Positions 38,680-64,000 of a stretch of DNA of 64,000 nt are shown one piece after another. How positions within the stretch are numbered: position 1 is the first letter of the stretch; every line of letters begins with the position of its first letter. The stretch spans positions 26,962,340 to 27,026,339 of the forward strand of contig OZ316894.1 of the NCBI GenBank assembly GCA_973895155.1, given 5' to 3'. The translations under genes were made by a program, and so were the position numbers. The notes under the pieces were generated by a model. That model did not search any database and was not told where the DNA came from. It saw only the letters and a list, made by a program, of their open reading frames with translations. Source of the stretch: Marsupella aquatica (taxonomy: Eukaryota > Plantae > Marchantiophyta).

Positions 38680-38963
38680 GACACTAAGGATGACCGTAGG
38701 AAAAGCATAAGGGAAGTAGATGGGTACGACAGTGGACTGGAGTCAGCCGATGAAGTACGTTGGTTAGAATGCCTCACTAACCTAACCGAAGAAGGTGTCT
38801 TTGGACCAGAGGTACCCCCCAGCGGATTATGGCAAGAACCAATGGAAGGTGACTTGGAAGAAGAAGACGAAGAGGTCGAGGACTGCTTTACAATAGAATC
38901 CACCTTTTTAGCTGCAATTCCGGAGGAAGTAAAGGATGTAGACCAATTGGATGAAACGGCTAA

Positions 38964-41984: not shown

Positions 41985-44900
41985 ACAGGAATCACTCGGC
42001 CGGTTAAGTGGGTAAAGCAGGGAGGCACCCTAGGAACACCTTAGTATAGTGACAAAACAAGGAAAATATAAACAATTAGGGGCAACCATGGAACCCGGGC
42101 CGAGGCCGGAGGTAAGGCTAAGGGTGAAAACCCGATTAGGGTTAGGGCGCGTTAAGCGTCGGCGGCTAGGAAGGATCAACGGGAAGAAGGACCGGCAAAG
42201 GAGAGGGGTAAGGAGCGCTTGCAGGAGATAGTGGCTCATTGGCGAGCACGAACTAGGCAGACGACTACGGGAGGCCAACTACTGTCAGCTGCTTAGGCAA
42301 GCACTCGGGGAGAGAGTAGATACCGACGATCAACCTAAGGAGGGTATGAGCAACGTCAATCAAGCGGCACATTTCTGGGGATGCCTGTTCGAACGGGCAA
42401 CTGAGTACATCAAGACTTACGAGGACGAGGAATCAGAAAGGGCAGCTCGAGAACGGCAGGAGCTCGCTCGATTGTGGGAGCTGCAGAAGACGGCTTTCTT
42501 AGGAGGCGAACTCATCAAGGACGAGTTCCAGTGGACGCCTACTTCCAATCAACTCGATGATCTTCTGTTTTGCAAAGACAGCGTCGTCGGCATCCGAGAG
42601 GCCATCAAGAACTGCAACGACATACACTAGGAATTAAAGGGTAGCACGGAAAGGTGGACCCAGGCAACGGTGCTAGGAGAAACCTCCACGGCAGCAAAGA
42701 TGAAGAGGAAGGGAGCCGTCAACGATGAAGCCACCCCGGCAAAAAGAACGAGGTCGGCGGCACCAAAGAAGCCAGCCGAGCAGCAGAGCAGGAGGCAGGG
42801 AGAAGCCGAAGAGGAGGAGGTCGATCCCATCAAGGCCATTCCAACCAGGGATGACACCTGGAAGGGCTGGACGGCAACCCTACCGGTGGAGGTGCAACTA
42901 CATTTTGCACGGGAGGAGGATGCATGCTTTACGGCCATGCAGACCAAGAATACCAAGGCTTCATGGCCGGATCCGGCTTGGAGGCCTTTGTAAGATTACC
43001 ATGGCTGAAGCCGGAGGTACCGGAGTCAGACCTATTAGAATTCGTGGGGTCATGGGAACCCGAGACCAATTGCACGAGGATATATGGGAAGGATTTCTAT
43101 CTTACTCCCAAGGTAATTGCCGAAGTGTTTGGCCTGCCGATAGGCAATAAGACCAAAGTTGATACCAGGAAGACCTTGCCTAACAAGGAGTTCCGGTCGT
43201 TCCCCGGGCCATCAACGAAGAATGGCTTCTTCCGGAACACCTGCACCAACCCGCACATAGGAGAGATGATCGACTTCTTGCGGGTGACCATGCATTGTAA
43301 CTTGCCGAGGGCAGAGATCGGCAAGGCACAGGTCTATCTGGCAGAAAGGCCAGACCCAAGCCGGGACTACAACGGGTACCTCCTCAACCAATTGAAGAAG
43401 ATCTTAAAGGAGGAGCAGTAGGTAATCGGCATGGGGAGCGTGTCGCGGCTTGGCTATCACATGCCACTGTTGTGCCGGTATGCCAGAGGTCAGACTTTTG
43501 CCCCGGTACTTCCCCTACAGGTAAGGGCACCCGAGGAAGCTCCAACGCCGAGGCCGTTGGCTGAGAAGCCTCAACCACCTGTTAGTCCTACGATCGAGCA
43601 GGTGTTTAGGCCCAGGAAGGAGGACTTGCCGATGCAGCAACCAGGCATGCAGAGTCTGCTGAAACTACTGGAGAAAGAAAAAAAATCGACATCGGCAACA
43701 ACAACGGCAACGGCAACAATGCAGGACACTACTACAGAGGTAGGCCTACACCGGCTCACAAGAGAAAACCCCTTTGCTGGAGACAAGGAGAGAATCAGGC
43801 CGGAATCCAAGCCAGGTGTTCGAATGTACGTGGGAACCTCAAGCTCCGAATCTGAGGTAGAATTGCCTGAAGCTCCTACCGACGAAGAGGAGAGGGAGAA
43901 GCCGGACGTCCAAGAGGTAGAGGAGGCAGTGGAGGACTGCAGCCATGATAATTCCGGCTATGGGTCGGACCATCACGTTCCAGGAGTAAGGACCTGTGGC
44001 CGGTTTGTCCCCACACTTCCAAGGGTAGTGCGAGGGGACCCCAACCAGCAGAGTAGCCCTGAGTCTCCCCCACCAGGATGTTGCTCCCCCGAGCTTCGAC
44101 GGCATAAAACAGACGGTGCAGGAATTTCAGGAGCGAATCAAGCAGGAGGAGGAGGCCGCCCTGGCTAAGGAAAAGGATTTACCAGGAGGAGATTGGCCGG
44201 AGGACATCAGGCGGCTAGCCGAAAAAGGAAGCAAACCTCTAGCCACGATTGAAGAGATCCGCAGGACGGCTTGGGAGCAGAGGCCACGATGGGCGATGCC
44301 GATCACTTCTACTTACTCCACCTACGCTAAGAATAGAGCCATGGAGTATGGTGAGATGTGTGGGGAACTTGCGCTCGGCATCTTTGGAGAGGAGTTGGAG
44401 GTAGGACCCTTTTTCCATAGGGAGCAGTTGGAGAAGCACCAATTAGAAGAAGCGGTGGCTTTAGAGAGAAGCAAGAAGGACGAGGTCATTCGGCGGCTTA
44501 GGAGGATGGAAGCCGAGATTGAAGATCTAAGGGCGGCCAAGAAAGCCCAAGATGAACTGCGGATTAAACGACATGAGCTGAACATCATGCAGGGGCAGTT
44601 GGACACCGCGCAGGCTGATAATCAGAATATCAAGGATAAACTGACTCAGACGCAGGAAGAGTTGGCCGACACGATCAAAGAGAGGGAGAAGTGGAAGCAA
44701 GAGCTGAAGAATACAGAGGAGGCCCACATAACAGCCAACAGCCGGGCCATGGCGGAGACCCAAAGAAAGGAATGGGCGTTGAAAGGGGAGCTCGAGAAAA
44801 TCCGCGGAGCCCTTGAGCAGAAGGAGGCCGAGTTAGGGAAATCCTATCAAGGGATTATGGCGCTGCAGCAGGAGCTTGCGTCCCTGACGGCCAGCTTCAA

Positions 44901-46632
44901 GGCCGACCTAAGGGAGAAGGACGAGATGCTCGAACAGACTTACGCCAAGATGAACCAGATGGAGTCTGTCATCATTGCAGAGCTCGACAAGGAGCTAAGA
45001 GCAACCCGGGAGGAGAGGGCTACCTTGAAGAAGGAATTGGAGGAAGCCCACAGGGAGCAGGAGGAGGCCAAAAACGAGCTGGAGGGGGCACGTAAGGACC
45101 TGGATGAAACCCAAGAGGAGTTGGAGGAAATCACGAGGAAGATGGAGAACCTACAGCGGCGGGCCGACAACCAAACAGAGCGGCTGAAGAAACAAGCCGC
45201 AGTATTTAAATGCTTAGCTGCAGCAGGTCCATCTCCCGTTGGGACAAACCAGTTACCAGGGGTGGTAATTGCCGAAGGACAAGCCGCGCCACCTGCACCA
45301 GTGCCGGGAGTAAGTGGGAAGGGGAAGGGACCAGCTGCCGAGCCACCAACGAAGAAGAAGCGGAAACCTTCAGGGTCAAGGAGTAATACGACTTCACAGG
45401 CCGTGGTGATCAAGGAGGTAGACCCAGCACCGACCCCAGACAGGGTCACGGCTAAGGATCCAACTACCCTAGGGGAAGGGGAGGCCGAAGCCAAGGGAGT
45501 GGCTGAAGCCGAAGCCGTGGGAGTGGCTGAGGCCGAAGCCGTGGGTATTGCCGAGGCCGGTGTCGAGGCTGAAGCCAAAGGTGGACCCAGTCAGGCCGAG
45601 GGAGAGTTGACTCGGTCAAGGGCAGGTAATCTGTCAGTAGGCGGGCCAACGGTAGTGGCTGAGGAGGAAGTGTTGGGGGCGTCCATTGAGGATCCACCAC
45701 CGGTGTCGTGACGGTGCAAGGGCGCCGTTCCTTTTAGGGAGGGCGGACGTGGAGGGAGGAGACGTGAGTGGGCAGGGCGGGCGCGGATCTCCACGTTTAG
45801 GATTAGGATTAGAACCAGGAGCGGCCCTGACACTTAGCTTAGTGGGATTGCGGTTCCACTGGTAGGAGCAACACTTGTGCTCCTGCCTTACTGTACATAG
45901 GTAGATTCGGGCAAGTAGATTACTGTCAGGTAGATTAGGCTTACGATGCAAAGAATGGCGGATCCACTACCAGGATAAGTACCTGGGCAGCGGGGAGCTC
46001 AGGGCCTCTTCTTTAGCAAGTTTTTAGTTTGCACCAGCCGGGCTGGGATCAAGTAGTACGAGAAGCTCTCGGTTAGTCATACAGTGACCCTTGTGTATAT
46101 TCATGTTTCCTCATGCCTAAGAGCTGAATAGAGTTGGCCTCACGGCTTAGTTCGCAGAACTTGTGTATGAGATGTACTGTTTGTATGGCAAGTGCATGGT
46201 ATGACTCAGTCAGAATGAGTCATTTTGCTATTTGTGTGTCGCATTAACTTGTGTGAAGAGTGCCCACATCAACAGAAGGAAGGAAAGTAAGCAGGGGAGT
46301 GAGAGTTGGATGTGTCAAGCTGAGAGAGGTCTTAGCGGCTTAACCAAGCCTATTGGGGATCATTCCGGCGGCGGAATCCAAACATACCTAACAAGACGGA
46401 GGGGAAGATAGGGGAAGACAGGGGAAGGCCTATATTAGGCCGGCTACGTATCTCATGACCCGATGAAGGATCTGTCCAGTATATGTGTGTAAAATGTTAA
46501 TAGTAGTAGTAGAAGGTTAGCAGCGTCCCATGCCGCTAAGCCGCGGAAACGGCCTCGCCAAGCACGAAACCTGCGGGAATCGGCTTGAGCTGGGGGGTTT
46601 CTTGGGTTTAGGGAGCCATGGGACGCACCACA
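41973..46632 (+). repeat. 3' LTR (4660 bp)
   Basis: TGTGATGCCTAGAC...GGGACGCACCACA, a direct repeat of the 5' LTR. Confidence 0.96.
42088..45711 (+). pseudogene. LTR-encoded ORF (3' LTR copy)
   Basis: Same protein. Stops at 42229, 42628 and 43419; frameshifts at ~42951 and ~44076. Confidence 0.85.
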
Positions 46633-46759
46633 CAACTCCTCCGTTGTCCTCACATGTACTGCCTCTGCACGTACATCCATGACCATATCAGAGTCCAATC
46701 ATGTATAGTCATAGACACAGGTGCCAGGTGCGAGACCGGTGTGAGATGTCCTCATCTTA

Positions 46760-47329
46760 CTACCACATCAAATACGGATACCAATCCTGTTGTCGATGCC
46801 ACTCAGCCCTGAGGTACTCAGGCATGTACATTAAGTCATCAAGGTCTAAACCCTGCTCATGCCATCGTGGTCTTCGATCCGTGCCTACAAGCAGTGGCAG
46901 CAGTGCCCTCCATGGTGCACATGTTGCTACCAAGTCCCTCCACTGGGTACTAATTAGTCTATATTTGCAGATATCTTGTGCGCCAGACACCACAAGAACC
47001 CTCGGCCAGACATGTGTAAGAACTATATCATCTGCCAAATCAGGCAACAAGGAACCACCTACAGCATCGTGCTTGTCTAACTCATCTGCTGAAAAGTAAA
47101 TGTCCTCTTCCGACTGTGCATCCTCATTCACCACAGCATTCACAACACATCCAAGGTCTGCAGGCATTATCTCGGATGGAGCTACACTCTGTCTGGTTAC
47201 CAATCCACACAAGTAAGCCCAAGCAGTAGCCATGCACGATGCAACCCGTAGGAGGACCCTACATAGGGCCTGACGGTCTGGAAGAGGCAGCATACCCACC
47301 AAAGTCTTCAGCCAAACAGAGCCCAGCAA
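46760..47329 (-). CDS. F-box-like cargo ORF in CACTA-2, probably decayed
   Basis: LLPDLADDIVLTHVWPRV......ICKYRLISTQWRDLV fits the F-box pattern LP.LPDDI...IL.R.....R.VCK.WR.L. Confidence 0.65.
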   Translation of the reverse strand: MLGSVWLKTLVGMLPLPDRQALCRVLLRVASCMATAWAYLCGLVTRQSVAPSEIMPADLGCVVNAVVNEDAQSEEDIYFSADELDKHDAVGGSLLPDLADDIVLTHVWPRVLVVSGAQDICKYRLISTQWRDLVATCAPWRALLPLLVGTDRRPRWHEQGLDLDDLMYMPEYLRAEWHRQQDWYPYLMW

Positions 47330-47469
47330 GTAGATTCACAGTCACACCCCACGCAGCAGGAAACAACAATCACTTCAACTGCGACCAACCATGACAAGAT
47401 GAGTTAGTTCAAGGATCACATTTATTACAAAATTGTGTTTTATACAAAAATATGAGGGACTCCTACTCC

Positions 47470-48225
47470 TCACTCTCTCCCACCTTTGCTAAGCATACAT
47501 CTCCGCTGAATCTTGGAGGGCCAGGCCTCAAAAATATCAAAGTCCCAAGCATTCTGTCGCTTCCCTCTAGCTACTGATTCCAGAAGCCAATCAGGGGAAA
47601 GCACCCAAAGATTGTTGTTCATGACAAAATCACGCACTGTTGTCTTAAAGAATTTTCTGCATATTTTCATGTATGACAGACCTACAACATGAGTGGAGGT
47701 TTCTGTTAGACTCTCCTCCACTGTCCCACCTAGCTCAACAACTATAGACTTGTACAGTCTGCACTTAGTCTCCCCAATTCCTTCTTCTGCAAATACCACA
47801 CTGAACCCCTTCATAATGGTATTTCTCTCCTTGCCATGCTCATTCAATATAGCATCTGCACGCATAGGATGGTGTCCTATGTTGACAACAGGTCCATATT
47901 GGACAGAAGCAAAGTTGGGTTTCTCTGCCGCTGCTTCATAGGCTTCCTTTTCAGCCAAAGCCTCTGCAGTGGCCTCCTCACTCTCCCACAACTCATATTG
48001 CTCAGTACTCTGTACACACCTATGTTTAACAGAATCGGTCAGCCAAGAGACTTCAACTACTTTTAGACCTTGGTTGGTAATGGCAGAAACAATGAAGGAC
48101 CATGACCACTTGTTCATCACATCCAGCCATGTCCCCGCAACAACATGTGTAGTCTGTGGAGTGATGTCCTTGACTTCAGTCCCATGGAACTCTGAGAATC
48201 GTTTTTGTACGATTGGCCAACTCAC
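47470..48225 (-). CDS. Tandem BRCT protein, similar to the plant DNA polymerase lambda N-terminal BRCT; start uncertain
   Basis: Two units: ITPQTTHVVA...VVEVSWLTDSV and MKGFSVVFAEEGI...IVVELGGTVEESLTETSTHVVG...VLSPDWLLESVARGKR. Confidence 0.8.
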   Translation of the reverse strand: MSWPIVQKRFSEFHGTEVKDITPQTTHVVAGTWLDVMNKWSWSFIVSAITNQGLKVVEVSWLTDSVKHRCVQSTEQYELWESEEATAEALAEKEAYEAAAEKPNFASVQYGPVVNIGHHPMRADAILNEHGKERNTIMKGFSVVFAEEGIGETKCRLYKSIVVELGGTVEESLTETSTHVVGLSYMKICRKFFKTTVRDFVMNNNLWVLSPDWLLESVARGKRQNAWDFDIFEAWPSKIQRRCMLSKGGRE

Positions 48226-48911
48226 TTGGGTGAACCCTAAACCCTAAACCCTAAGCTTTGATTCCAGCCAACAGAGGCGGGTGGTCAACCTTTGTACGTT
48301 TCCTAGAGGCCATGTACACACGGGCCACCTAATCACTGCAGACCGGAAGATAATGCGTTCACCTGATAATCGGAGGGCCCTTAAAATGCTGCGTTTATAA
48401 CTTGGTCCAGTCCAGTCGTCTGGTGAGTCTCTGCTCCGATTCCAAATGGGAGAAATATTGGGACAAACGTACTAGACACCTGCAAGCATGCACCTCATAG
48501 TTTGAATATGTGCCTTCACAATATTGAAGGTGACAAGTGCAATTGTTTTGTGATGCCACATACAGATGTTGTAAATGGGCAGACATTCAATGAGAATACA
48601 AAATGTTGGTACACTTTAAGGGAATTCTCGCAAATTAAATAGCCTTGTAACTTATATGCTCATAATGAGAAGTCCTGATTTAATTTAAGCATTGTCATGT
48701 AAGTCGTGATCAAAATGATTGCAGAGTTAAAAAAGTTCCTAGAAGGCTTAAGGGCAGTTTTTGAAGGCATGTACCCAGGAACAAGTAATGAACTTAGGGT
48801 ACTTGTTGCCTAAGCATCCTCTCCTACAGAGGTCCTTCTTCTCAAAATTGGAATGTCTGCAATCTCCAAGGTATCCACATCAGGTGCACTATGCATGTAT
48901 ATTATTCAGGT

Positions 48912-49592
48912 TCAAAGCCAAGAAATGTGATCTCTCATGGGAGTGTGCAAAGTAGGATCTATGGCATGGCGATGACAATAGAAGATCCATCGATCAACAC
49001 CATGTGCAGAGTGATCATAGATGTGTCTGTCACAAGCATAGCCTTCTGCTTGACGCTCCTTCAAACAATGAAAGTGCCACATGGTGGGACACCTAACACA
49101 GTGGACTATGTCCACCCAGAAATCTTCATCGTGCTGACCACATGCCTTGCACTTATGAAGTGGGCAAGCTGTGGCAAGATCGGGAAAACATGAAAAACAA
49201 AAGAACCTCACACAATATCTGTCAGGGCATTTCCTAACAAGTGGTGGAGCATCAACAGAGCCCTCATAAGACCCCAACTTCCCACACTGTGCACACTTAG
49301 CCTGCTTCTCCAAACAATCAGTGCACATCCAGCCTCCCTGGTGTGCTGACGGGAGGCCCACCCCTGGACAGTTGTTTTCTGCAGCAAGGTCAGACTCCGG
49401 GTTGAGGTGGAAATGCCTCATGCAAGGGCCCTCACATATGGCTAAGCCACCACCATCGTCACAAATGGCACAACAATGAGCTGCCTTCTGGAAAATCTGA
49501 CTTGCGGAGAAGTTACTACCATCTGGCCCAACTACACCTGTGTTGCTCACCTCTGTCCCCCGCTTCTTGGCTCGGATTTTAGGGCGTGCCAT
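48912..49592 (-). CDS. Stand-alone EDM2/NSD-type composite PHD finger protein (226 aa)
   Basis: CAICDDGG.L..CEGPCMRHFH, CTDC....KCAQCGKLGS, CPLHKC..C, CVRCP..WH..CL, FYCHRHAIDPTLHTPMRDH follow the EDM2 PHD cluster in order. Intact ORF with a basic N-terminus and a splice-acceptor-like site just before the ATG. Confidence 0.88.
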   Translation of the reverse strand: MARPKIRAKKRGTEVSNTGVVGPDGSNFSASQIFQKAAHCCAICDDGGGLAICEGPCMRHFHLNPESDLAAENNCPGVGLPSAHQGGWMCTDCLEKQAKCAQCGKLGSYEGSVDAPPLVRKCPDRYCVRFFCFSCFPDLATACPLHKCKACGQHDEDFWVDIVHCVRCPTMWHFHCLKERQAEGYACDRHIYDHSAHGVDRWIFYCHRHAIDPTLHTPMRDHISWL

Positions 49593-50261
49593 GCCTACGC
49601 ATGAGACAGATAGTACAATTTAGCAGAGTGCACGGACAATACAATTTAGTGCAGTGTACAAAAAGTACAGTGTAGCATATAGACTAGAGTGGCAATTGCT
49701 ACTGCAATGAAATGTTCACACACATGTGCAGAGTAGACATACTTTTTGGTTTGTTGAGCCCACACTAAAAACTGATCCCCTCGTACAATAGCTCCACCTA
49801 CACCTCAATTTTGTGGCTATGATTCACCAAAGGAGATCTGCAACAAGATTTAATGCATTTGAATCACATATAACAGTCGTGACATGTAAAACAGGCATTT
49901 TTTGAACAGGATTGGTATCAAGCACTGTGATCAGGGTTGTAATTTATACATCCTAAATAGGCTATGATAGTGAATGAGACAAATAAGTTAGGCAGAAATC
50001 ACTTTTTCCAGGTTATCACATGGCCCATTAATTCCAGTCTTTGAAAGGAGACTTTTAAGTGAGCTTGCTAGCCTCTTAAATTAGGATATTGTACTTAGTG
50101 CAGCCATAATAGGATAAGTTATGTACTGTTGACCCTAAACCCTGGACCCAAAATTGGTCATAATTCAAAATCTTAAGTAAATATCCTCTCTGTTCAAGTC
50201 AAAGTGTTAAGTTATAGGTCAATGGTCTCTGGTTTGTGCATGCGGTGTGACAAGTGGTCCT

Positions 50262-50711
50262 CTAGAGCGTGTGATCCAAACATGTGTAGACACCAAAGTG
50301 ACCGGTGGTGGGGTCTGGGAGGGCAGGACAAGTGACATCGCCAGGCACACTGCAGGATGGCGAGTGGTTCCAGATGATACATTGTGCTCTGTGAAAAAAC
50401 CGACATCCAAGAGAACGGTCATCCAACTCTAGGCCAGAAGCCCTATAGGCAGGACAGTCATATTGGCAACTGTGCACACACCCTTGGGCCCTAATTTGTG
50501 GCGGGTCATGTATGAGAGACAGAAATACCAAGGATGTTGGGAAGGGTGGAGAAGCAGGTACAGGCCGGCTGTAGTTGTTCCTGGCAACAACTGGGTACTC
50601 AAAGTACCATGCAGACTGGGCTGGAAGGATCCCAAGTCTGACATACTCAAGGCGCAACATCTCTGCCTTGCGTGCAAGCCGCACATGTTCAGCGTTGCGG
50701 GTCCTCACCAT
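50262..50711 (-). CDS. Small Cys/His-rich hypothetical cargo protein
   Basis: 149-aa ATG-started ORF on the same strand as neighbouring cargo genes. CVHSCQYDC, CRFFHRAQC, HSPSC...C...H....C..H. Confidence 0.45.
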   Translation of the reverse strand: MVRTRNAEHVRLARKAEMLRLEYVRLGILPAQSAWYFEYPVVARNNYSRPVPASPPFPTSLVFLSLIHDPPQIRAQGCVHSCQYDCPAYRASGLELDDRSLGCRFFHRAQCIIWNHSPSCSVPGDVTCPALPDPTTGHFGVYTCLDHTL

Positions 50712-53700
50712 AAGTGTTGCTTTTGTGGAGATGTCGTGTGTTCACGTCCTCTGATAAGCACCTTCGATCAGCAAGGTGAGCAGGAGCTGTACTTGCCTCA
50801 CCAACAGCAACCAACCTTAAATTATCAGTTCCCACTCACTGTGTCATTCCATTGGTTCCAGCTAGGGGTCACAGTGTAAACATAGCATGAAACACTCCTA
50901 ATCAACTTGCTTACAAACTACAATATCCAGAAAGAGTGAAAGTCTCACCCTCCAGTGAGCAGCAGAGAGGTAGTTCACTAGATGTGTTGATGTGCAGTTA
51001 AACCTCCACTATTGCTTACTTCTGGTGTATGCTGCTCAGAAGAAGACATATTAGTAGCAGCAAATTGCAAATAATGGCCATAAGCAAACCGTGAGAGTTT
51101 GCAGAATGCTACGACAAATCCATCACAGCAGTGCTCCACAGGAATGAAACCAAGCAAAATTTGGTGACCTCGGCCAATGACAAGGCCAATGTAGTGAACA
51201 ATCCTTGACCGATCAGGATATGGATTGGAATTACAATTAGTCAGCTCTTCTTCTTTGTTTTCTAACTCTGGGGGAAATGAGCATGACCAGGGAATTCTTT
51301 GAGAAATAGAAGTGCACAGGGAAAATGAAATTGGCTCATTCAGCTGCGCAAGACCGGCCATTGCAGCAAACTTGGACAGTTGTTCCGCAATACATAAAAT
51401 ACCCTGACTTACATGCAATCGATACAATCTGCTTCTGTTGGCTGTCCTATAGCTCACGGTAGTGCCGTTGGGATAGGGTAAGTGAATATTGCCATAGCTG
51501 AAGCACATTGAGCTTGCAGCAAGAAGTGAAGGAGCATGGCCAAAAGCAGAAAAGACAGACAGGTTTTACAAGAAGAAACTAACAACCGCCAATCTGCTCA
51601 AATCCGCTGCATAGATCAAACCCTCCAAACTACACAGCCCTCCTTTGAAAACAATCCAATGTGCTTTGGCTGGTGGATGACAAGGACTGGGAGAAGAGGA
51701 AACGTCTACACAATCAATCCCAATGACGGGACATAGAGACCAGGCACAGAGAGGATTTGTGCTTAGACAAAAACCACAAATTGTAGCATGGGCGCCATAG
51801 CATTGGGCGGCAATGGGAAGAATTACATCAAATGAGTGGACAGAGAATGAACAGTCCGGTTATAGGCAAACAGCGACTGATGCCCTGATGCAATGAAACA
51901 CGCATTGACATAGCGGAGGGACATAAAAACTACATAAGCCAACTTACTGACCTTTTAAGGCCCACAATTTCAAGGGGAGGGACAAAGACAGCAATAACAG
52001 ACGCAGAGACAAAGTTGTACTCTGTCAATTGAGTAGGCAAGTGGGTGGGTGAAGATCAACAACCAATGTAGCAGCGCAACCAGAGTAGCAACAAAGAAGC
52101 AGGTTGCCCTCAGTCTCCTATTTTTCAAGCAGCTCGTGCTCGCGGTCAATCTCCTATTCTGCAAGCAGCTCACGCTCGTCCCTCTTGTTCTGCAAGCAGG
52201 TCATTCTTGTCGGCGATGGTGCAAGCTGTCCTCCTAAACTCTGACACTCAAAATGAAAAGACCAAGCACCTCCAATCTGTTTGATCCCTTCCGCAAGCAG
52301 CCGAGCGGCAGACGATAATGTAGGGATCAAGAACCAAGTGCCAGGCGGACATTGCACAAAATGAGGACCGGGGGCAGAGACAAAATCTACCGAAATCTAC
52401 CGAAATCTACTTCTTGGGGTCCAGCCCACGGATGGACATCATGCAAGGTGGTCAAAAATGGTAAGTGCAATTGTTGGAGAGCTGTACTCGCGATTACTAA
52501 CGGTGCATCCACAAAATGCGTCATCAAGTTGTCAGTGCGGCCACAACAATTTTGACAGTCTCAGGATCACAGGTCCACAAACAAGTTGCAAATGAAGACA
52601 CACAACGTCCAGGAGGGAAAGTCCGCAACACTAACCCTTTGTAAAGCCCCCGAGCTTACCTTCTAGCTGCCGACGCAAAGAGAAAACCTACTCAGACACT
52701 AAAGCAACCCTAAACTCAAAGTCTCACCTTAGCGCAACAACTCCTGGATTGGATTCAGCTAGCTCAGGCTCAATGAAGCATGTCGCCTCGGGCTCTCCGG
52801 ATCCTCCCAAGGCAGCAAACAAGTTAGGGTCCACGGTCCTTGTACCTTCACCGCACCGTTGTGTCCTTCCCAATGCCTCCTCTGTAGTTGCGTCTTGTCT
52901 GCAACTCTACAGCTCCCCGTGTTGCTCTGCCGCACTTAGTTATATTCCAACGCCCGATCGTGACCAAAAAGAGTTTTCTCCTGCTGGACAGCACTAGGCA
53001 TTTGTTCAATCTCTTGATCACGCGTAAGCAGCTACAGGTATGAATCACTCAGTTGGCAGCTCAATACGCTTACAGCAAGAGGGCGCAATAGGTAGAAGCT
53101 CGCGCTACCTAGACCAGCACAAGGACAAAGCATTAACATTGAAACTGTACCATGGAGCTGGAGAAAACCACAGAGTAATTGAAGCCTAACAATACCCTTC
53201 TTAGCTCCCGACTCCAAACTCTCGGCTCCCAGTTTGCAAGAACAAGCACTATGAAAATATGGATTCCCACATTGACTGTGTCCGCAGAACAGATGCAACC
53301 CGCATGCAACTTCACCAGCTCAACGGCAGCTTGACAACTGAAGGACCTCCCAATGAGCCTCACGGCCTCCCGATGCTCGTTATGGGTGCAGCAAAAGGGT
53401 CTATACCACAACTGTGACCGAGATTGTCACCCAAAACCTTGAAGAAACCCCAACCTCCGACTCCTCAAACTCCGACAAGCTCCTCACGAACGTTGCAGCA
53501 GCCACAACCTTCTTCGCCCTACCAGCCAAAAACTAAATGTCCCTAAAGGAGATCGAGCAGGAATGCAGGTCTATGAGTAGACTGCAAGCGCAAGGTTAGA
53601 TCACTGCAACTGCCTGAACACTGCTCCTCGAGAGCATAAACAAGCACATAACGCGAGGGAAGTTCACTCCGCAATGGTCGCAAAAAGTGGGCAACACTGA

Positions 53701-55172
53701 AAGGAAAACCCTACGTAAAACCCCGAACACTCCACCCCTCACGTTCTAAGTTCAATGACAATGGCGAAAACTCCAAAGAGACTCCCAAAGTGAAGTTTAG
53801 TGCCTGAAACCGAATTAGGGGAAGCCACTCAGCCTTACCGTTTGAGTGAGCCGTTGAGTGTCACCCAAAGTGGGACAAAGCTACAAAGTGTTACTGCATG
53901 GCCAACTTAGGCAATGAATGGTCATATTTGCACATACATGGTCGGTAGTGACATTTTATTGCACGCCGTAATCAGGATTAAGGTTGCCCAACATTATATC
54001 CGGTCCTAAAATGCAATATTCCCGGTGCAAGAATGTGACCTAGCTCTAATGTATGAAAAAGGACCGGTACAAATCTACCTTTGTGCATCTTGACCTTTTA
54101 TAGATGGATTTAGTAATGGCCAAGAATATCTTGACCATCCCTCCATGGTCCAACCTCCATGAACCCCACTTCATTAAACCCAAAACCTTTTTGGTCACAA
54201 ATAAGGACATTTAATGAGTTATGCCCCTTGCTATCACCCTCTTTATAGATTTATTTTTTTGTTTGAAATTTTACATTTATTCCGCGTGAACCCCACGGAT
54301 GGGGGAACCAGTAGGCCAAATGGCATCATAAAACCTCAACACCCAAAGGAGGCAATAACAAAGAGTTACTCAACCAGGGTCATCAGATCAGGCAAAGATT
54401 GCGAAGCCGTTCTTCTAGTGGTCCATGCAACAAGTAACAACTAGGGAATAAGCACTAGAAGGCGCAGTAGGTCAGCATAGTGTAAGTGTAAAGTGTCAAA
54501 GCATTGTCTAGTACTAAATTAATCCACCTGATTAGTAAGAAGGGGGTGTATACTGTAATGGGAAAAAGAAAAAAAAACCAAGGCATGAGCAAGGGCCACC
54601 AAGAGTGGTGCAGCTATAAGCTATAGGGATTGAACACAATGCGGGGGGGCAGTGGCACTATGTATGAGGAAATCACGGGAGTATCGGTGTCAAATGAGTC
54701 GACAAAACTCCCAGATAGCCACACAGTATAAATCAATCTCACAGAAGGCTGCCATCAATGGAGGAAACAATTTGACACGACCCACATCTGAGAGTGTGAA
54801 TTCGCTCGATCTCCAGCAGTTCTTTGGCACTCGATAGACGTCGGTGCTTTCGGCTCAAAGATGAAGGAGAATTACCCCTCCTCAACATAGAGTGAACATT
54901 ACCCATGATGTGCTAGACTATTCACCCTTCACAAAGTAGCAAGGTTACTTCTCATAGTCTTTTAGTGAACCATAAAACTCTCATAGTCTTTTCTAGTCTT
55001 CAACAAAACCGGTGCAATGGGTGCGAGTTGTTTTAAGTATGGAAAAAGGACTTAGTGGGCATAGTCCTATAAGGTATGGTCTAAATTGCCCCGGTTTCTA
55101 CTAGTGGGTTTATGCACACCCTTAAGCAACATTACAGTAGAAAAACTATAATAGCACCTCAGAGAAATGTAC

Positions 55173-55546
55173 CGTGAGGTTGGGGAACCCTGGAATAGCG
55201 GAGTCCTGGATTCAGTTTCCAATTGGTCCCAATCATCTTCGTCTAGTTCCATGACAGGAGGGTCACCCTCAGGTACATGAGGTCCAAAGTGGATGTCCAC
55301 AAGGTGCGCAAAAGCATCCTCTTCAACAATAGGTGCATCCATATCATCCTCTACATCTTCATCAAAATCGTCATCATGTGCATCATGGTACTCATTCACA
55401 TCCTCGTCCACATCCTCATCCTCATGCACATGATCACTCTCAACATCTTCGTCGTCAGAAAAAGATAATGTGGCTCGCATGTGGAACGAACGGGCTGACT
55501 CCGTCATCATCGATGGATGAGGTGTAGGTGTTATATTTGGACCATC
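55173..55546 (-). CDS. CACTA-1 transposase acidic exon
   Basis: Acceptor TTGCATAG|GAT at 55547. D/E-rich, ends ESRTPLFQGSPTSR at donor GTAC (55172), in frame with the exon starting at 26172. Confidence 0.85.
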
Positions 55547-55689
55547 CTATGCAAGACGTCAATATTAGATAAGGTCATCCCCAAATTAGACAATGTGTTC
55601 CCAATAGTGCATGAGGTAATGAAGGTCAAAGAATCCAATATAAGTCTCACTCTGAGTAATGAATAAGTGATCAATAACATATATAATCT

Positions 55690-56505
55690 TCAATGCCAAT
55701 CATAGTCTACAAATATCTCATCCCCTGCTCGAATGGTGCGGGTGGCATGTGTCAGGATGTAGTGACTGCATCCCAAGGGCAAACGAGGGTGACTTTGGTC
55801 ATGGTACTCATGCCACTCAGCGTTGGGGCGGAACCCCAAACGCCGACACCCCACTGTGCTATTGATGTAACCCGCCAAGTTTCCAGTACGAGGGGGGTAA
55901 CCATCCATCTGAGTATACCTAGGGTCCAACTTTAGTGACATGCCATACCGACCAAAGGTTGGGCATTGGCGAGACAAGATACGCCATCTATGGGCCGAAT
56001 ACTTTGGCCCATAAAATGGAATCAACTCGGGCAGGTCCTCAGGTGCACAACCTTCCGGCACCACAATATCCACGAGTGCAAATAATCCAAGACCTACGTT
56101 GTCTCCCAATGTGGATGGGAGGAGGACCCATGGCCTATCCCAAACTACAATAGGCTCCCGAACAAGCAGGACCATAGGGAGGCCAAACTGGGTTGGGAAT
56201 GAGTCCTTTATGATGTCCAAGGCTCTCCCTCTTAACTCTCTTGGTGCTCGGGAAAAAGAGGCATCAAGAAAAGGACAGTGTGGCGGCACCGTCCTAGGGG
56301 TACGAGACGTAATGGACCGAGGTCTAGTGGTGACCTCTACTCCCCTCTCAATAGGGTGACTCTGAATGACCCTCCTCCTCCTATCAAAAACACGGTCTAT
56401 TGCCCTTAACGTGGCATCGAGTGCTGATGGGGGAACTAGTGCTGTGAGCGCGCGATGTGCAACCTGTCTCATGTGGTCCAAGGGCGGAGAGACCACACAC
56501 AAAAT
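55690..56505 (-). CDS. SET-domain exon (putative lysine methyltransferase) within the CACTA-1 transposase gene
   Basis: PSTLGDNVGLGLFA, FYG, GNLAGYINS, PNAE, ATRTIRAGDEIFVDY are canonical SET motifs. Open frame; acceptor AAACAG|ATT at 56506 after a pyrimidine tract. Confidence 0.88.
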   Translation of the reverse strand: MLCVVSPPLDHMRQVAHRALTALVPPSALDATLRAIDRVFDRRRRVIQSHPIERGVEVTTRPRSITSRTPRTVPPHCPFLDASFSRAPRELRGRALDIIKDSFPTQFGLPMVLLVREPIVVWDRPWVLLPSTLGDNVGLGLFALVDIVVPEGCAPEDLPELIPFYGPKYSAHRWRILSRQCPTFGRYGMSLKLDPRYTQMDGYPPRTGNLAGYINSTVGCRRLGFRPNAEWHEYHDQSHPRLPLGCSHYILTHATRTIRAGDEIFVDYDWH

Positions 56506-56652
56506 CTGTTTCACATGTGAACAAGAGAACTTCAGAAATCAGGGAAAAAACCATTCCAACTAAACACTCAAGAAACTCAAGAAACCCAAACATGTTATAT
56601 TCAAAAATGGACTTAATGAATTGAATAGTGTCAATAAAGGTTTATGAATTAC

Positions 56653-57171
56653 CTGATGTGTCGGGGGTACGTAACGGCCGTGGAGGCCTAAATGGCTAAG
56701 GACAGTGGTCCTCTCGTGGGAGACGACGCCCTTGCATCTACTACATGGGCAGGGCATCTTTCGGACTGGGCCAATCCCCTGAAGGGCAGCCATGGCCTCT
56801 CCAAACCTATCCTCATCCTCCGGCATGGGTGATTGGTGTCGGGGTGTGTGGTCATCAGAGGGAGACCTGGACCGGCGGTGGCGGTGGGACTGTCGATGGG
56901 ACCTCCTATGCCTTCGTCGCTCCCGATGTCGATGATCCCTAGATCGGTACTCCCTATCTGAAGACTGATCCCAACTCCTCTCAGACGAATGGTGCCTGCT
57001 CCTATCAGATGATAAGTCCCTCCTCCTCTTGGTCGAGTGGTATCTCGACCTCGCAGGTGAGTGCTCCCTCCTCCTCTCCCTCCCCCTATCATGAGAGCGG
57101 TACCTGTCTCGGTGATGTGCACCTCCATCATAGCGATCATCAGATGACCACTCCGATGAGCACGAGGCCAT
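56653..57171 (-). CDS. CACTA-1 first coding exon: RS/RH-rich region + transposase-associated zinc-binding domain
   Basis: ATG at 57171, then RSRSPS-type repeats and MPCPCSRCK........VLSHLGLHG (Transpos_assoc pattern CPC..C...HL...G). Donor CAG|GTAATT at 56652. Confidence 0.85.
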
Positions 57172-57689
57172 GGCCTGCAATAGTACACACACATATACAC
57201 GCAAACTTGCAAACTCAGCCTTGGAAATGGAACGTCGGGACCACTATAGTACCACAATATTTACGTCAAGTAAAACAAAGTACTTTCACTTTACGTCGCC
57301 GAGAACACAATACACGATGTATTTCTTAAACCCTACGTCATGTACCGTACCCCACACGACGTTACAGTAAACCCTACCTTTTAACGGTGTACAGAACAAC
57401 GTTTAAATGAAAACATTGTCTAGCACAACGTATTACTAATCGATCAATTAGGGCATCATCGTGAAAAATGACGTAAATAGACAGAGAACGGCGGAAACAC
57501 ATTGTTGCGAACTCTGCCGCATTCTATTCGGAAAATACCGGGGCATAGTGTCGAATGTGAGTCATTCGACCATTCCGCACACACCTCACCCCACATCTAG
57601 TGTTCTGTTCTGTTCGTGGCTCTAGTGAAGCTCTAGTGAAGCTCTAATCTTTGTGAAGGTCATCTACATTTGCTCCAAGTCTCGCCTCA

Positions 57690-59854
57690 ATGTCACGTCC
57701 AGCTTATCTGCCCCTCAGTATCAACTTTGATGTTGTGAAAGTTTCCATGGAAGACCCAGAGGAGGTGGAGAAGGTTCGAACAGCTTTGCGGTCAGCACAT
57801 TCACTGATTGATGCTTTCAATCAGAGTTGGCAATTCATGGGAGGAACTGGGACGAAGGAGTCACGATTTTTGGAATACCTTCAGAACATAGAAGAGAACG
57901 CTCCAGCATCCGACGTTGAGCCCGACATTCAAGCACCAGAGTTCTTGCGCGACCTTCCGGGGGCATCACTTGATCCTCTTGCTTCCTTCCCGCCCTTGAT
58001 GGACTCAGTCTGGGACTATCCCTCGTTCTCTGGGATGGAGCCGGATTCACAACCACCCTGTGTTACTCCCATCAAGAGCCAAGTGAGGATTCAGAGATAT
58101 GAGCCTGATGATTCAAGTACAGAGTTGCGGACACACAGAAGGCGACATCATTCCCGTTCTTTGAGTAGCAATAGTAGCATTGAGAGGAGACAAAAAAGGG
58201 GAAGGGAAAGGAGCGCAGAGAAAGAGACAGCCACAGCACACACAAGAGAAAAAGGGCTGAACGAGATTCGAGGGTGGACAGAGATAGGAGAGGTCGAAGG
58301 TCACATCGACATTCACATTCAATCGGAGGAGGTCATCGGCGAGCTTCTCCTCACCAAACCGTTGCTACTCCTGCCAGCAAAGAACAACTGCCGGTCATCA
58401 GCCTGGCTGCTTTTGATGCGAAGCCAGAGGTGCTTGATGAGAAGGCGCTAACGAATCGAGTGCAGGTCTGCTGTACGAAACACTGCCCTGGGTGGACGAC
58501 TTGGAAGGACCTCATGCACAATACAAAGAAGTTTCAAGTACTCCTCAATGACATACAGGCCGGATTCAAGAATGGCAGAGAGATTGATTTTCGACACATC
58601 AGGCAGAAGATTGTGAGTTTCCTTGCTGACAGAAGATTCAGGTGGAGAAGCAAGGTCCGAGCAATGAAATGCGAGAAGACAGGGCAGTACCGTAAGCCTG
58701 AAGGGATGGCCGAGTCGGACTTCAACTTGATCGTGTCTGAACTTGAAGCACCCCCAGACACCCCAGTAGGAAAACGAGTGCACATGGGTGACAAAGTCAC
58801 TGCAGCTCGAAAGAATAGTGGACGCCTTCTAGTAACCAATTTCTGGGGGCAAGGAGGATGGCGAGGGTTCCTCGCAACCTACGTAAGTCTCGGACCCAAC
58901 TTCCATGTTTTCATTTCGCTGCTCCGGTGTAAACCATAGTGTAACGTCGAGATTTTGAAATTACGTCGCCTGATTCATTCATAACGTCATCCATAACAAC
59001 GTTAACTTTGATTTGTAACTTCATCTGAGACGTACCTTAGGAAGAACGTCGTCCTTGAGACGTTACATGTACCGCTTTAGTGAAAACGTCATTAGAGCGA
59101 CGTTAACTAGATATGCAACGCATGGAACGACGTTAGCACCGATGCTGAGAGGGTTGAATACGTGCTTAGGAACGACGTTCTTTTGCTTTCTCGCAGAAAC
59201 GCAAGTTTGGTGTCGATGCTGAGCCGTCGGAGGAGGAGCGGCTGTACTCGAAACGGTATGGCCCGGCAGCGCTATGGGCCAAGTTGGCCTCAGTCCCGGA
59301 GGATCACCGGGTAAGAGCTAAAGTGATTGCTAGGTTGTAGTTGACTTTAGGCCTACTCTGTGACATTAACTGACCAGAATGCTATCATGCAGGTGGAGGA
59401 TTGGACTCCTCCGGAGGGCTTGGTTGCACGGGCCATCCCTGAGGATCACTTGCCAGCCAGGGTACCGCCCGAGGAGGGTTTGCAGGAGGAGGCTCACGTA
59501 GATTGCGGGCAGGAGGAGGCAGAGACTCATGGGGGGCGTACTAGTGGCCAAGGCCGGAGGGAGAGAGAGAGAGCCAAGGGAGGGAGAGAGAGGGAGATAG
59601 GGAGAGATAGGTCAGATAGACAGAGGGGGAGGGAGAGGGAGAGGAGGAGGAGGGATGACACTAGGCGACCTCCACACAGTAAGGGGAGTAGGCCAGTGAC
59701 TACTCATAGGGCTGCAACACAGGCAGATACGTTGTCCCCCAGTACCACTAGCTTAGAGGAGGATGACTCCAGGTACGAGTTGCGCCCGAGAGGCGTACAA
59801 CCCACTTCTACACGCAGGTCTGGACGTGATACCAGGCGGACTGAGCGTGACTAG
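57690..59854 (+). pseudogene. CACTA-1 TnpA-like gene, divergently oriented; exons ~57690-58882, 59197-59310, 59393-59854; one frameshift in exon 1
   Basis: Transposase_24-like features: TTWKDL, IVSFLADRRFRWRSKV, KPEGMAESDFNLIV, AARKN....FWGQGGW. In-phase GT-AG junctions. Confidence 0.65.
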
Positions 59855-60602
59855 GGTATAGCCTATTTTACTTGCCCGACTTCATCCTCCATTTTGTACA
59901 TATTTGGCCCATAACAATATTATCTAATACGACACTTTTCGCGGATTACAACGTCTATACCATATGCATATTGAATGTGTATCCCTAAACCCCAACTGCC
60001 TACCCAAATAATGCTCACCCCATTGTAACCCTAGCTTAAGTGTGTTTATAACCTCCAATAAGGTTGTATGGCAGGGTCCGACATAATATACGGGGCGTCG
60101 TTCATTCATAAAGTTACCAAGCATCTCACAAGGTATGACCCAGACGTAGTCTTCCACTTTCACACAACGTCGTTCATGACATCGATATATGATAACAACG
60201 TCTTATCACACCACGTAAACCAATGAACGAATTCACATTACATCAAACGGAACGGTGTCCCAGACATCGTTACAAACACTGACGTTGTCTTATACGAGGG
60301 AGTCAACGTCGTCAATCACGACGTTTTGTTTGTATTAACGTCACTCCGTGCGACGTTCAATGGACATGGAAATCTACATTAGCCCAGTACTCTAACGATG
60401 CATAGGACGTCGTGCACACAAAGAACCACGTTGGCGGTGTGGCAATGTGCGTTGTGTGAGACGACGTAAGAAACCACGTCAATATAGACGTCCAGAACGT
60501 TGCCAATTTTACCTTGGGGATTCCGTGTTTCCGTTTAGAGTTTCATACGTCGAGATTAGCCTGTTGTGAGGCAACGTTAAGTTGAGTCAAAATGTAGTTG
60601 TG

Positions 60603-63600
60603 CTATCGGTTTCATCTGCAGCTGCACGACGCTCTTCCTTTTCCTCCTCGGAGTTTGTTGTACCTTGTTCCTCTCCACCTTCACTCGATTCATCATCAGA
60701 ATCAAAATTGAGAACCGACCGAAGCTTATCTCTCTTTTTTCTGTCGGCAGTAGGAACAGGTGGAGGTAACACTGCAATCTCTTTGGGAGACAACAAATCC
60801 ATGAAAACCTATGAAGCGGTTTCAATAAATTCTTTCCGGTGTTCTATCTCGAGTACAAATCGTCCAAAGAAGTCGCCAGCAATGTAAGAGCTTCCAGCCC
60901 CAACAGTCCAATCCATAAAAATATCACGAGGCCGTGTGACAAGCTCTATAACAAATTGCATAAAACCCATAGACAGACGAGCATTTCCAGCAAACTCCAT
61001 TTGCGGGAATGGATCTGATTTGAGCGAAGAGAGTCCGATCAAATTGGTAACCGAAGGGTCCTCACTGATGGACAGCGGCCGAAATTTGGGGTCTTTGGGA
61101 ATTTTACATTTCCCATTAATTCGGCCAAATATGTCGAGCCTGAGGGTAAACATCTCTCGGTCTGTCTTTGCCGCATACATCGGGTCAGACATCACAACAT
61201 TATGCGAGCATATACACTGAAATTTCCTTGACTCCTGACAGGCAGCAATGACTTGCGACATGGGATCGTACTCCCCACTGTGTAGAATTACAAGGAACCC
61301 ATCATCTGATAAAAATGGATCCATGGATTTGAAAAAAGATCTAGCCATTGAGTGATCTGGAATGTTCCATTTAGGAACCTTCTTATCAATGATAGATGGT
61401 TTGAACCCGGTCGGTAGGTAAATGAAGCCGGCATCCACTCCAAACGATCTTACTTTTCCCCCCGAACAACTCCCTTCTCTTTAAATCCCAACTTAACGAG
61501 GTCTTTTCCCCATTTCTCCACATCACTAACCCACTCGGGCTTCTCCTCCTTGTTGAACGTCGAGTCAAAAAATTCAGAAAGGCTTGTCTCAACCATGCAA
61601 TGGCGAGACACAGTTGTTTTGAAGTTTCCAACTTCACGTTGGAAACCAGAAGCTATAACACTCTCCCTTAAAGATTGTCCACCTTCGACAGCTCTCTTTC
61701 GTTTCTTCCTGGTACTCGTGGCGTCGATAGGAACTATAACCTTCCCTTTGTCAACTGGAGTAATGGGGTCCGATCGAGATCCCGTGTTTGCCTCGGAAAC
61801 TTCAGGTGTAGCATCCTTTTTCGTATCTCCCATTCCCACCGTATTAGACTTCCTCCCTCCTAAAATATAACCAGGTCGTAGTTAGAATAAGTACTTTTAA
61901 AGTATTGAAAGAAGCTAGCGCCTGGCGCTAACCAAATGCAATTCACTTAAGTCGCAACCGAAGCCTAATAACCAAGAAAGAGAATACCCTCAACAGAATA
62001 TTTTTTGCCAGCGCCTGGCGCTGGCAAAATCATGGATAGCAATACTTACTCTTCTTTCCAGATTTAGTAGACTCGTTCGGTGCTGCTAGCTCCGCTTTGG
62101 CTTTCGCGCGAGGTTTGCGACTCCGGTCCACATGCACAACAGTTGTTTCACAGATAGTTTGCAAGTTTGTGGCAGACTTGTCTACATCGTCAAGTAGACC
62201 CTGCTTCATGTCGGACACAAGTTTTGCTGGCATCTGAGACTTTGAAAGCTTATGGAAGGCATCTTTTTCCCTTTGATCAAAAGGAGAATCCCACTATCTG
62301 TATCTAGATACCAGGGGCAGTGAGTTCTCTCCCATTCTGTCATTGGTCTCGGAGGAAATATGCCCTCCGTGGGGTACATAGAGTACAAATCAGCCAAGGC
62401 ATCATCTTCACTTATTGAAATCCACTTCATAAAAGCTGCAGGATATGCCCAGAAGTAATCAGGTTTGTTTACCTCCATGTGCATGTAGAACCTATACACA
62501 AACCTCTTCGCTCGCTTCTGGTTTCTCCGGGTGTAATCTTCTTTGTCAGGGTACTTTGAAGGCCACATAGTGTGAAAGAACTTATTCTTCACGGAATCAC
62601 CAAATCTCTTGAATTCATTTGTAACAAACTGAACTAGATCATCAAACGAACTACAATTCCACTCTTCCAATCTATTCGCGGGCATGGTTTGCTCAACTTC
62701 ACATAGACATGAATGTAACATGCCAGCAGCAATTCCCTCCACACTATTCCAAGTGATCCAAGTGTGGCACCACTGTTTGACTGGATCATCGTTAACACTT
62801 GCTGGGTGAAAAAACTGTCTCCGCAGCTCAGGATTGCAATGTGCCACAAGTAAAGTGCTTCGTAACTTTGGGTCTAGAGCAGAAACAGCGGTGAACAATC
62901 GTGCGCGGTCCATCGTACATACAACGGTGTCAGGCTTCTTCTCTCTCTTGTTTCTCTCTGTGATAGCATACATTTCTGCACATGTACTGAGGAAATCTTC
63001 AAATTCAGGACTTAATAAGGGCGTAATTTTTGAAGACTTCACTGCCCAATCTTTGGTTGCGTCTTTCATCATGGCCGCATGCCGTTTTGAAATCTCGTCC
63101 GCCGACCATGGACTCCCTTGAGCCTCCGCTGCCTCCATGTCGAGTTTGAATTGATGCGAGTACGACTTTATCTTATTCTCACAAAGAATGTAAACAAGTG
63201 CTTCTTGTGGCATCTTCTTTGTATACCATGACCCCTTCCGAGTTTTCAGCGGAATGCTTTCAAACTTCTTGAAATTACCCGGGTCAATCAGTTTACTGTA
63301 ATACTCAAGGTCATGTGCCAGAATTCGTTTGATTCTGTCCGCATCCAGGATCCAGGAAGGCTCTACAACTGCTTGGCCAAGCCTACACGAACAAACGTTG
63401 AGAGTACAAGTCAATGAAAAACAATTCATGTATAAGCAGCGCCAAGCGCAAGTAAATACAGCACTCGCAAGATTTAAGGAAAGAATTGGAAATCATGAGA
63501 ACTTACTGATTCACGGTGTGCATAGCTGCCTCAATTTCAATGAGAGATCCCTTGTCTCCTTTAAATATTGTACAGAGCACACGAGGATGATATTTTGGAT

Positions 63601-63750
63601 TGTCCGGGTTCTCCTCTGTTACAAACTCCAGGAGTACAGCCTGTGATTTCCATCAAATACAGAGAACATCTTATCCTTCAAGACGAGAAAATCCGGGTCA
63701 GCCTCGCATTCAGCCTCAAACTTCTCGTTCTCCAATTGCCATATTCCTTG
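60603..63750 (-). pseudogene. ParB-like + helical region + beta-class N4C/N6A DNA methyltransferase-like multi-exon gene, frameshifted
   Basis: FSVFDGNHRL at 63640-63654 (ParB/Srx DGxHR motif). Intron 63506-63383 joins it in frame to ORF 62206-63429. FVIELVTRPRDIFMDWTVGAGSSYIAGDFFGRFVLEIE (60809-61438) matches the N6_N4_Mtase 'li...t.pgd.VlDpF.GsGtt..aa...gR..igiE' pattern. Confidence 0.7.
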
Positions 63751-63756
63751 GAATGG

Positions 63757-64000
63757 TTTTTTTAATAAATTTTAATACCGTGAAAGACCCCACGGATAGG
63801 GGGAACAACAGCCCTTAATACAGGGACAGCAACAGCACACTAGTGAGCCACAAAGAGAGCCCAAAAGCACAAAAGAGAGCATCAAAGCCCCAGGAAGAGC
63901 CCCCCCTCAAAGAAGGGAAATAACACCGATCAAGAGAGCATATTGCCATATTGGATCCCATGAATCACGAATGTCCTGGGTACAGGTCAGAACAATTCCG
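63757..64000 (-). mobile_element. Probable poly(A)-ended retroposon 3' end interrupting the ParB exon
   Basis: T-run at 63757 followed by CGTGAAAGACCCCACGGATAGGGGGAAC. A related T-run + CGTGAACCCCACGGATGGGGGAAC lies at ~54250-54310. Confidence 0.4.

Follow-up and report, generated by a model that had tools for sequence, protein, structure and literature searches.

Transposons that carry ParB-like and amino-methyltransferase domains as cargo have been described in algae. In the brown alga Ectocarpus, the 21.5-kb Sola-1 element Sola1-1_Ec32 encodes an 1104-residue protein in which a ParB-like domain is joined to an N4/N6-methyltransferase domain and which has been proposed to bind its own transposon (PMC12477816; this and the other sources cited by accession are used as far as their contents were available to us). 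The Plavaka elements of red algae carry PAG2 (PF01555 with SET), PAG3 (a ParB-like domain with a 2-oxoglutarate oxygenase) and arrays of inverted repeats; the ParB domain of PAG3 was detected weakly (HHpred E 0.29), and the cassette moves between transposon superfamilies (bioRxiv 10.1101/2025.02.11.637652). Fusions of the type ParB-N6_N4_Mtase are common in phages (PMC12704722). Active beta-class enzymes are also found as low-copy host genes: MpDN4MT1a/b of the liverwort Marchantia, with the motif TSPPY and no extra domains, and N4CMT of bdelloid rotifers. Here we analyze a minus-strand gene within 64,000 nucleotides of contig OZ316894.1 of the liverwort Marsupella aquatica (the window). Its product would have combined a likely ParB-type segment, a helical domain and a domain with the fold of a beta-class amino-methyltransferase. 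The window copy is a pseudogene belonging to a liverwort family that has kept the fold under purifying selection and has very probably lost catalysis. The family is probably transposon cargo, and we lean slightly toward reading it as encoding a non-catalytic, DNA-binding accessory protein of the transposon.

Reading of the sequence gave three exons and two GT-AG introns, with the frame kept at both splices and a coding length of at least about 950 codons. This anatomy, in which all features lie on the minus strand, is assigned with high confidence. Exon 1 consists of an upstream part at 63953..64000 and a remainder at 63507..63745, which share a frame once a 207-bp insertion between them is removed. 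The upstream part matches an exon of a homologous metagenome locus, L001, and the remainder is an uninterrupted frame in L001. Since the frame crosses the insertion and is still open at 64000, the true start lies outside the window, and position 63750, the outer limit in the original prediction, is not the start of the gene. The remainder of exon 1 encodes the ParB/Srx-like segment with the GxxR-type sequence FDGNHR (at about 63658-63641). Intron 1 (63383..63506; 124 nucleotides, phase 2) joins this exon in frame to the helical region, as had been predicted. The same junction is found in L001, where intron 1 is about 815 nucleotides long and differs in sequence from that of the window. Exon 2 (62050..63382) encodes a conserved, unclassified and probably helical domain followed by a linker. 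Independent support comes from the relative P0078, a single open reading frame (ORF) that spans both window frames, has borders equal to those of exon 2 and is 49% identical across the first 363 residues. Intron 2 (61860..62049; 190 nucleotides, phase 1) contains two AGCGCCTGGCGCT palindromes (61917-61929 and 62010-62022). Exon 3 (60603..61859) encodes a basic, disordered linker, the methyltransferase-fold domain (about 61600-60800) and an acidic tail. Within this domain the motif IV position (61409..61420), in the context FIYLPTG at 61426-61406, lies N-terminal to DWTVGAGS (60890..60913), the S-adenosylmethionine (SAM)-binding motif I, which confirmed the proposed beta order. The intron position shared with L001 and the exon borders shared with P0078 likewise bore out the proposal of an intron-bearing eukaryotic gene.

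Profile comparisons and modeling support the methyltransferase-like domain, and the beta-class amino-methyltransferase fold is predicted with high confidence. The window piece matched PF01555 with an E-value of 0.057 and 13.8 bits, the Pfam gathering score being 26.7, and that score was reached by one of 13 relatives (P0058, 27.6 bits); the relative P0046 covers PF01555 positions 2-212 of 221. The same window piece matched M1.HpyAVI with E 0.011, and all 10 of its 10 best Atlas matches were to PF01555, at about 0.94. When the family profile was compared with the PDB, M1.HpyAVI (9e-8) and CcrM (3e-6) ranked first, over profile positions 143-327, versus 0.035 for rotifer N4CMT. A model of the relative P0003, built from a 69-row alignment, had a mean predicted local distance difference test score (pLDDT) of 76, with the core above 90. 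It matched CcrM in Foldseek with E 8e-14 (Z 20.1, root mean square deviation 3.5, 228 residues aligned), and its top 20 structural matches were all beta-class amino-methyltransferases. The predicted fold is a permuted Rossmann fold in which motif IV is N-terminal to motif I. Homodimer prediction for the P0003 core gave a score of 0.45 (runs of 0.46, 0.45 and 0.19) versus 0.00 for the best control. Of the solved pairs tried, 20 of 30 reached the mark used, as did 1 of 23 single chains; contact agreement was at least 13% and pLDDT at least 74. Solved beta-class dimers exist and the predictor may be reproducing them, so the score is read as likeness only. The capacity to dimerize has probably been kept in the family.

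In CcrM the tyrosine of the DPPY motif stacks the flipped adenine (PMC6787082). In the window this position reads YLPT; the stretch VDAGFIYLPTG aligns with VDLILTDLPFG of a phage enzyme, so that YLPT falls on DLPF. Our alignment of the family comprised 78 rows, of which 42 cover motif IV and 44 cover motifs I and II, near-duplicates and one misaligned row included. Position 4 of motif IV is Tyr, Phe or Trp in none of the 42 rows. Position 1 is Asp in 8 and Ser in 4; in the other 30 it is neither, with free variation among Tyr, Phe, Ala and Cys. The second proline is present in 41. Even the least eroded members read DPPT or DLPS, not SPPY, and the catalytic pattern (D/N/S)PP(Y/F/W) is missing. 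The SAM-binding motif I (D-x-x-x-G-x-G) is retained, the window's DWTVGAGS aligning with DPFMGSG of M1.HpyAVI, with Asp in 41, the first Gly in 35 and the second Gly in 38 of the 44 rows; an acidic residue marks motif II in 36. Among the differences listed for other copies over 61340-61480, 9 of 11 are synonymous, among them all three within YLPT, and between exon 2 and L001 the proportions of synonymous and non-synonymous differences are 0.84 (pS) and 0.34 (pN) across 249 codons. These codon comparisons show purifying selection on the family. From the synonymous variation in other copies and the family-wide loss, the altered motif IV, which had been noticed in the window alone, appears to be a selected trait of the family and not a lesion of the window copy. 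We consider it very probable, from the motif alignment, that the family is catalytically inactive.

It might nevertheless be argued that intact copies are active amino-methyltransferases with an unorthodox site, writing N6-methyladenine (6mA) or N4-methylcytosine (4mC) on their own element, for example at the CCNGG core of the palindrome described below. The conserved SAM motifs I and II and the intact fold would suit such an enzyme, as would the Riccia members with Asp at the first position of motif IV (8 of 42 rows), the DLPF of some phage enzymes and the algal precedents, which the available accounts propose to modify DNA. The absence of the base-stacking aromatic residue from every one of the 42 rows, and of both Asp and Ser from position 1 in 30 of them, makes this quite improbable. 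Kinship with the 4mC enzymes of rotifers and Marchantia, which the original prediction had invoked, was not supported and was rejected on the evidence of N4CMT and of the motifs: the 6mA enzymes M1.HpyAVI and CcrM are better matches (E 1e-7 to 3e-6 versus 0.035 for N4CMT), and the least eroded motifs are the DPPT and DLPS forms.

The window copy itself makes no such protein, and we hold its decay with high confidence. It carries three frameshifts, at 63626 within the DGNHR exon, at 62293 and at 61457, and a premature TAG at 60811-60809. The window was compared with contigs of public runs X1-X7; over the motif IV stretch X6 yielded none and X5 and X7 one each. Contigs from four of these runs depart from the window at exactly the four lesion sites, and other copies in them read through all four. 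Every contig of X1-X3 has an additional base at 63626, and the 61457 difference was found again in a separate contig set over the motif IV stretch. Assembly errors in homopolymers were rejected as an explanation for all of the lesions, as 61457 alone falls in a run. The insertion in exon 1 (63735..63952) comprises 196 bp and an 11-bp direct duplication (63735-63745 / 63942-63952). It is bypassed by X1 and X2 contigs, which skip 63734-63942, and is missing from L001. An intact DGNHR exon was likewise rejected, given the frameshift at 63626 and this insertion. All eight of the substitutions listed as separating nearly all contigs from the window, the best-supported differences, are non-synonymous, which fits the expectation for a dead copy. 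Two further observations concern these sequences. The 196-bp insert (63746-63941), with its A-rich end and 11-bp duplication, resembles the 3' tail of a retroelement without long terminal repeats, and several contigs match it. Low-depth contigs of X1 and X4 both lack 60882-60937 and 60995-61235, within the methyltransferase domain, and represent another decayed copy.

A HMMER search of 1.84 billion representative proteins returned 73 matches, or 72 relatives after a spurious 4783-residue repeat protein was dropped. Calypogeia fissa has five of the proteins on five contigs, and Riccia sorocarpa has ten (six matches and four cluster members) on four contigs. Over 141 bp, the 44 contigs of one public run sort into four classes of identity. 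Summed contig depth over the gene is several-fold above that at 57-60.5 kb, a difference not taken as copy number. The proposal of a multi-copy, dispersed, intron-bearing family, as distinct from a single-copy gene, therefore held. A metagenome scan with the methyltransferase piece found no relatives in 40 candidate stretches, and scans of viral and prokaryotic contigs found no close relative (0 of 31, 0 of 1 and 0 of 62); the best phage matches were ordinary methyltransferases at E about 0.002.

These copies could instead represent a host family, domesticated or amplified passively and spread by neighboring repeats. Its product might, for example, be a pseudo-methyltransferase that partners a beta-class enzyme of the host, as METTL14 partners METTL3. 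The strong purifying selection, the conserved intron positions, the predicted dimer surface that is kept and the existence of an active beta-class MpDN4MT1 in Marchantia could all be accommodated by a host family, as could our failure to find the carrier transposase in the window. Such a family is hard to reconcile with the many divergent, dispersed copies per genome, mostly annotated as fragments, with the decay of the window copy and of the internally deleted low-depth contigs, or with the presence of the same architecture inside curated algal transposons, as described in the sources available to us. We regard a host family as improbable and the transposon cargo assignment as probable.

The gene is interrupted near its 3' end by a later transposon. 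A CACTA-like insertion complex of 39.9 kb (20706..60602) lies within the last codons: the 13-bp terminal inverted repeat CACAACTACATTT begins at 20706, its reverse complement finishes at 60602, and the trinucleotide CTA is duplicated outside both ends. This is the only 13-nucleotide inverted pair in the window that starts with CAC and has identical 3-nucleotide flanks. One contig of X4 diverges from the window at 60603, and the 8 letters that follow are identical to 20695-20702. As the frame resumes at 20702, position 60603 is the edge of the insertion and not the end of the gene. The displaced continuation of exon 3 (20684..20702, minus strand) is in frame and ends either at a TAA (20686-20684) or at a putative third intron. 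Beyond it, a same-frame ORF (20270..20674, minus strand) is probably the last coding part of the gene: it has the LPSYAE and VDDE motifs common to the C-termini of Riccia relatives, and BLASTP matched it to P0063 of Riccia (35% over 63 residues, E 0.010) and to P0066 (E 0.22). Inside 20706-60602 are Transposase_21, DUF4218, DUF4216, Transposase_24 and Transpos_assoc. Because the CACTA, SET, plant homeodomain (PHD) finger and BRCT genes at 20.7-60.6 kb arrived with the later insertion, they are not the carrier of the gene. We rejected the possibility that the gene is cargo of this adjoining CACTA/SET element on the evidence of the terminal repeats, the CTA duplication and the resumed frame. The earlier proposal of an element-borne gene was supported with respect to multi-copy dispersal; the ends and transposase of the carrier were not found in the window.

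The ParB assignment has weaker support. The GxxR motif follows a hydrophobic strand, reading MFSVFDGNHR in the window and MFAIFDGNHR in L001, in agreement with the definition of Box II (PMC12704722). Profile searches with the L001 exon, its stop read as X, gave sub-threshold matches to a ParB-like family (phrog_1033, E 0.34), to DGQHR (TIGR03187, E 0.13) and to phrog_5732 (E 0.04). The predicted motif was present; a significant profile match was not obtained, these scores coming from the L001 homolog alone. The algal precedent makes it likely, by analogy, that exon 1 is of ParB type. For the helical middle domain (360 residues), no Pfam family was found, and its best Atlas match scored 0.84, with low recognition. 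An architecture like that of fungal DUF3723 was rejected for want of a Pfam match.

The non-coding DNA of the gene offers a candidate target. An unbiased scan of the window identified AGCGCCNGGCGCT as its commonest palindrome, with seven sites (six exact) versus 0.09 expected. Two lie in intron 2 and five past the displaced 3' end (18814..20235, at 18814, 18937, 19039, 20117 and 20223); the other 55 kb has none. In L001, intron 1 has 11 matches, with up to one mismatch, to another pattern, AGCCCNNGGGCT, versus 0.10 expected. Inverted repeats thus accompany the ParB-like gene as dispersed single palindromes in the window and as a tandem array in L001. As observations on the same regions, L001 intron 1 (420-1000) is full of degenerate AAGCCC...GGGCTT and GAGCT-type palindromic repeats, and a 153-residue ORF with no family (19085-19546) has palindromes on both sides and, upstream, a patch of short CTATCGTC-type repeats (19698-19918). 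This ORF probably represents a second gene on the element that carried the methyltransferase-like gene.

An accessory protein might instead work through protein partners or chromatin, the palindromes being unrelated to it (terminator-like hairpins, Helitron-type end signals or small insertions). Several of them end in CTAG, as Helitron 3' ends do; in addition, two loci were examined and no DNA-binding domain was identified in the protein. The confinement of all seven sites to the gene or the sequence just downstream of it, with none in the other 55 kb, argues against unrelated palindromes, and so do the inverted-repeat arrays that flank red-algal PAG3 in the description available to us. We consider this explanation unlikely.

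The reading that we prefer, of a non-catalytic DNA-binding accessory protein, would take the following form. The ancestor of the protein would be a ParB-methyltransferase of the 6mA (DPPY) type, from prokaryotes or from an algal transposon. The protein would dimerize through the methyltransferase fold, probably still holding SAM or S-adenosylhomocysteine, and would bind the palindromes of its element, a step that the GxxR domain would switch in a nucleotide-dependent way. Once bound, it may mark or shield its own element without adding methyl groups, whether against silencing by host 5-methylcytosine (5mC) or as a scaffold for transposition. A more specific version can be drawn from VANC of the Arabidopsis VANDAL transposons, an element-encoded, proven anti-silencing factor that acts on family-specific non-coding repeats (PMC5735166). 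Here a VANC-like factor derived from a phage-type ParB-methyltransferase would load on family-specific palindromes under nucleotide control; the dead, SAM-binding dimer would shield cytosines or capture a DN4MT1-like host enzyme, and protein and palindromes would have co-evolved through liverwort history. In this full form the proposal is rather unlikely. VANC is a functional analogy alone, its protein being unrelated.

Several observations weigh against an accessory protein that binds the palindromes. Neither the transposase nor the ends of the carrier were found within the 64-kb window, and the adjoining transposases belong to the later insertion. In exon 1, L001 had no PF02195 match and nothing relevant in Pfam or the PDB, and the window's own pieces matched no ParB profile. 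Neither a helix-turn-helix nor another DNA-binding domain was identified in the protein. Both palindrome patterns were picked after inspection of the sequence, at two loci, and in L001 the array could stem from the insertion of an unrelated repeat. Fold and dimer were modeled for P0003, whose identity to the domain in the window is 40%; a single-sequence model of the window's domain itself (pLDDT 34) was unusable. A full-length relative was not found as one protein (word-index protein searches found none, and the collection holds mostly exon fragments), so that the N- and C-terminal halves are joined only by the window and by P0075, through a match of 14 residues (E 0.013). Finally, an organism was named for 11 of the 30 relatives looked up among the 73 matches, five from C. 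fissa and six from R. sorocarpa, with no alga among the 11.

The gene lies in eukaryotic DNA rich in repeats, among them parts of CACTA transposases and a Gypsy element. The insertion complex (20706-60602) is giant and nested, with non-canonical 5'-CACAA ends and two or more sets of transposase parts; sequences with a CACTA start occur inside it at 20719 and 57242. Its cargo comprises a SET ORF (55690-56538; PF00856, E 6e-5) between two pieces of one transposase gene, NSD-like PHD fingers (48912-49619), twin BRCT domains (47470-48243) and a weak F-box ORF (46760-47335). ACGT-rich tracts at 20000-26000 and 57000-60600 (10-17 per kb versus 0-4 elsewhere), where the observed/expected ratio of CpG is raised, are located at the ends and in the introns of CACTA-like elements. 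The Gypsy element (31687-46632) has gag, reverse transcriptase, RNase H and integrase at 36-42 kb and terminal repeats of 4.3-4.7 kb, each encoding a long coiled-coil ORF. A solo-like copy in inverted orientation occupies 8935-13596. A tandem array of 116-121 bp units occupies 14988-15477, and a coiled-coil gene that has decayed and contains internal repeats of 189 bp (16454-18406) is convergent with the palindrome region.

Like the Ectocarpus Sola1-1_Ec32 protein, to which it is comparable in length, the eukaryotic protein of the liverwort family would unite both domains in a single chain and is probably carried by a repeated element. It differs in that the Ectocarpus protein, compared here by its published description, is a predicted active methylase of a brown alga within a defined element, whereas the liverwort family lacks motif IV. 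With PAG2 and PAG3, as far as they are described in the available text, it shares PF01555 and ParB-like domains as cargo, weak detection of ParB and inverted repeats beside the ParB-like gene. PAG2 and PAG3 are two genes with SET and oxygenase partners, in contrast to the single fused liverwort gene with its dead-looking methyltransferase, and the SET ORF of the window, unlike the SET of PAG2, belongs to the later insertion. Fold, motif order, SAM motifs and predicted dimer are those of CcrM (6pbd), M1.HpyAVI (5hfj) and PF01555, the prokaryotic group with which the phage ParB-N6_N4_Mtase fusions are also compared. Unlike these enzymes, the family has a YLPT-like sequence in place of DPPY, about 35 residues inserted ahead of motif IV, the 360-residue helical domain and spliceosomal introns. 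MpDN4MT1, likewise from a liverwort, and N4CMT also have a beta-class fold and a prokaryotic origin, but the (T)SPPY of these enzymes is missing here, and in sequence comparison N4CMT ranks well behind the 6mA enzymes.

Iyer et al. in 2016 listed transposon methyltransferases that are ParB-linked and others that are inactive, in a paper whose available parts note no land-plant one of this kind (PMC4738411). Our literature search found no description of the family in liverworts; a paper by Iyer et al. from 2011, a 2023 BioEssays review and the Bostrychia supplements were outside its scope and may bear on novelty. In the sources available to us, cargo combining ParB and an amino-methyltransferase appears in two or three papers, on algae only, and methylation of the element itself has been assumed. 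That purifying selection has kept the fold, the SAM site and probably the dimer in two distant liverwort groups while catalysis was very probably lost suggests that binding, not methylation, is what is selected. If so, the family would be a further beta-class pseudo-methyltransferase besides the METTL14-type subunits, in a plant group with 4mC in sperm. The palindrome is a candidate target, and liverworts are genetically tractable, so an anti-silencing role of the cargo is testable. Transposon accessory proteins with ParB and N6/N4-methyltransferase domains are already reported from brown and red algae; what the present family adds to them is a land-plant lineage and the family-wide loss of the catalytic motif.

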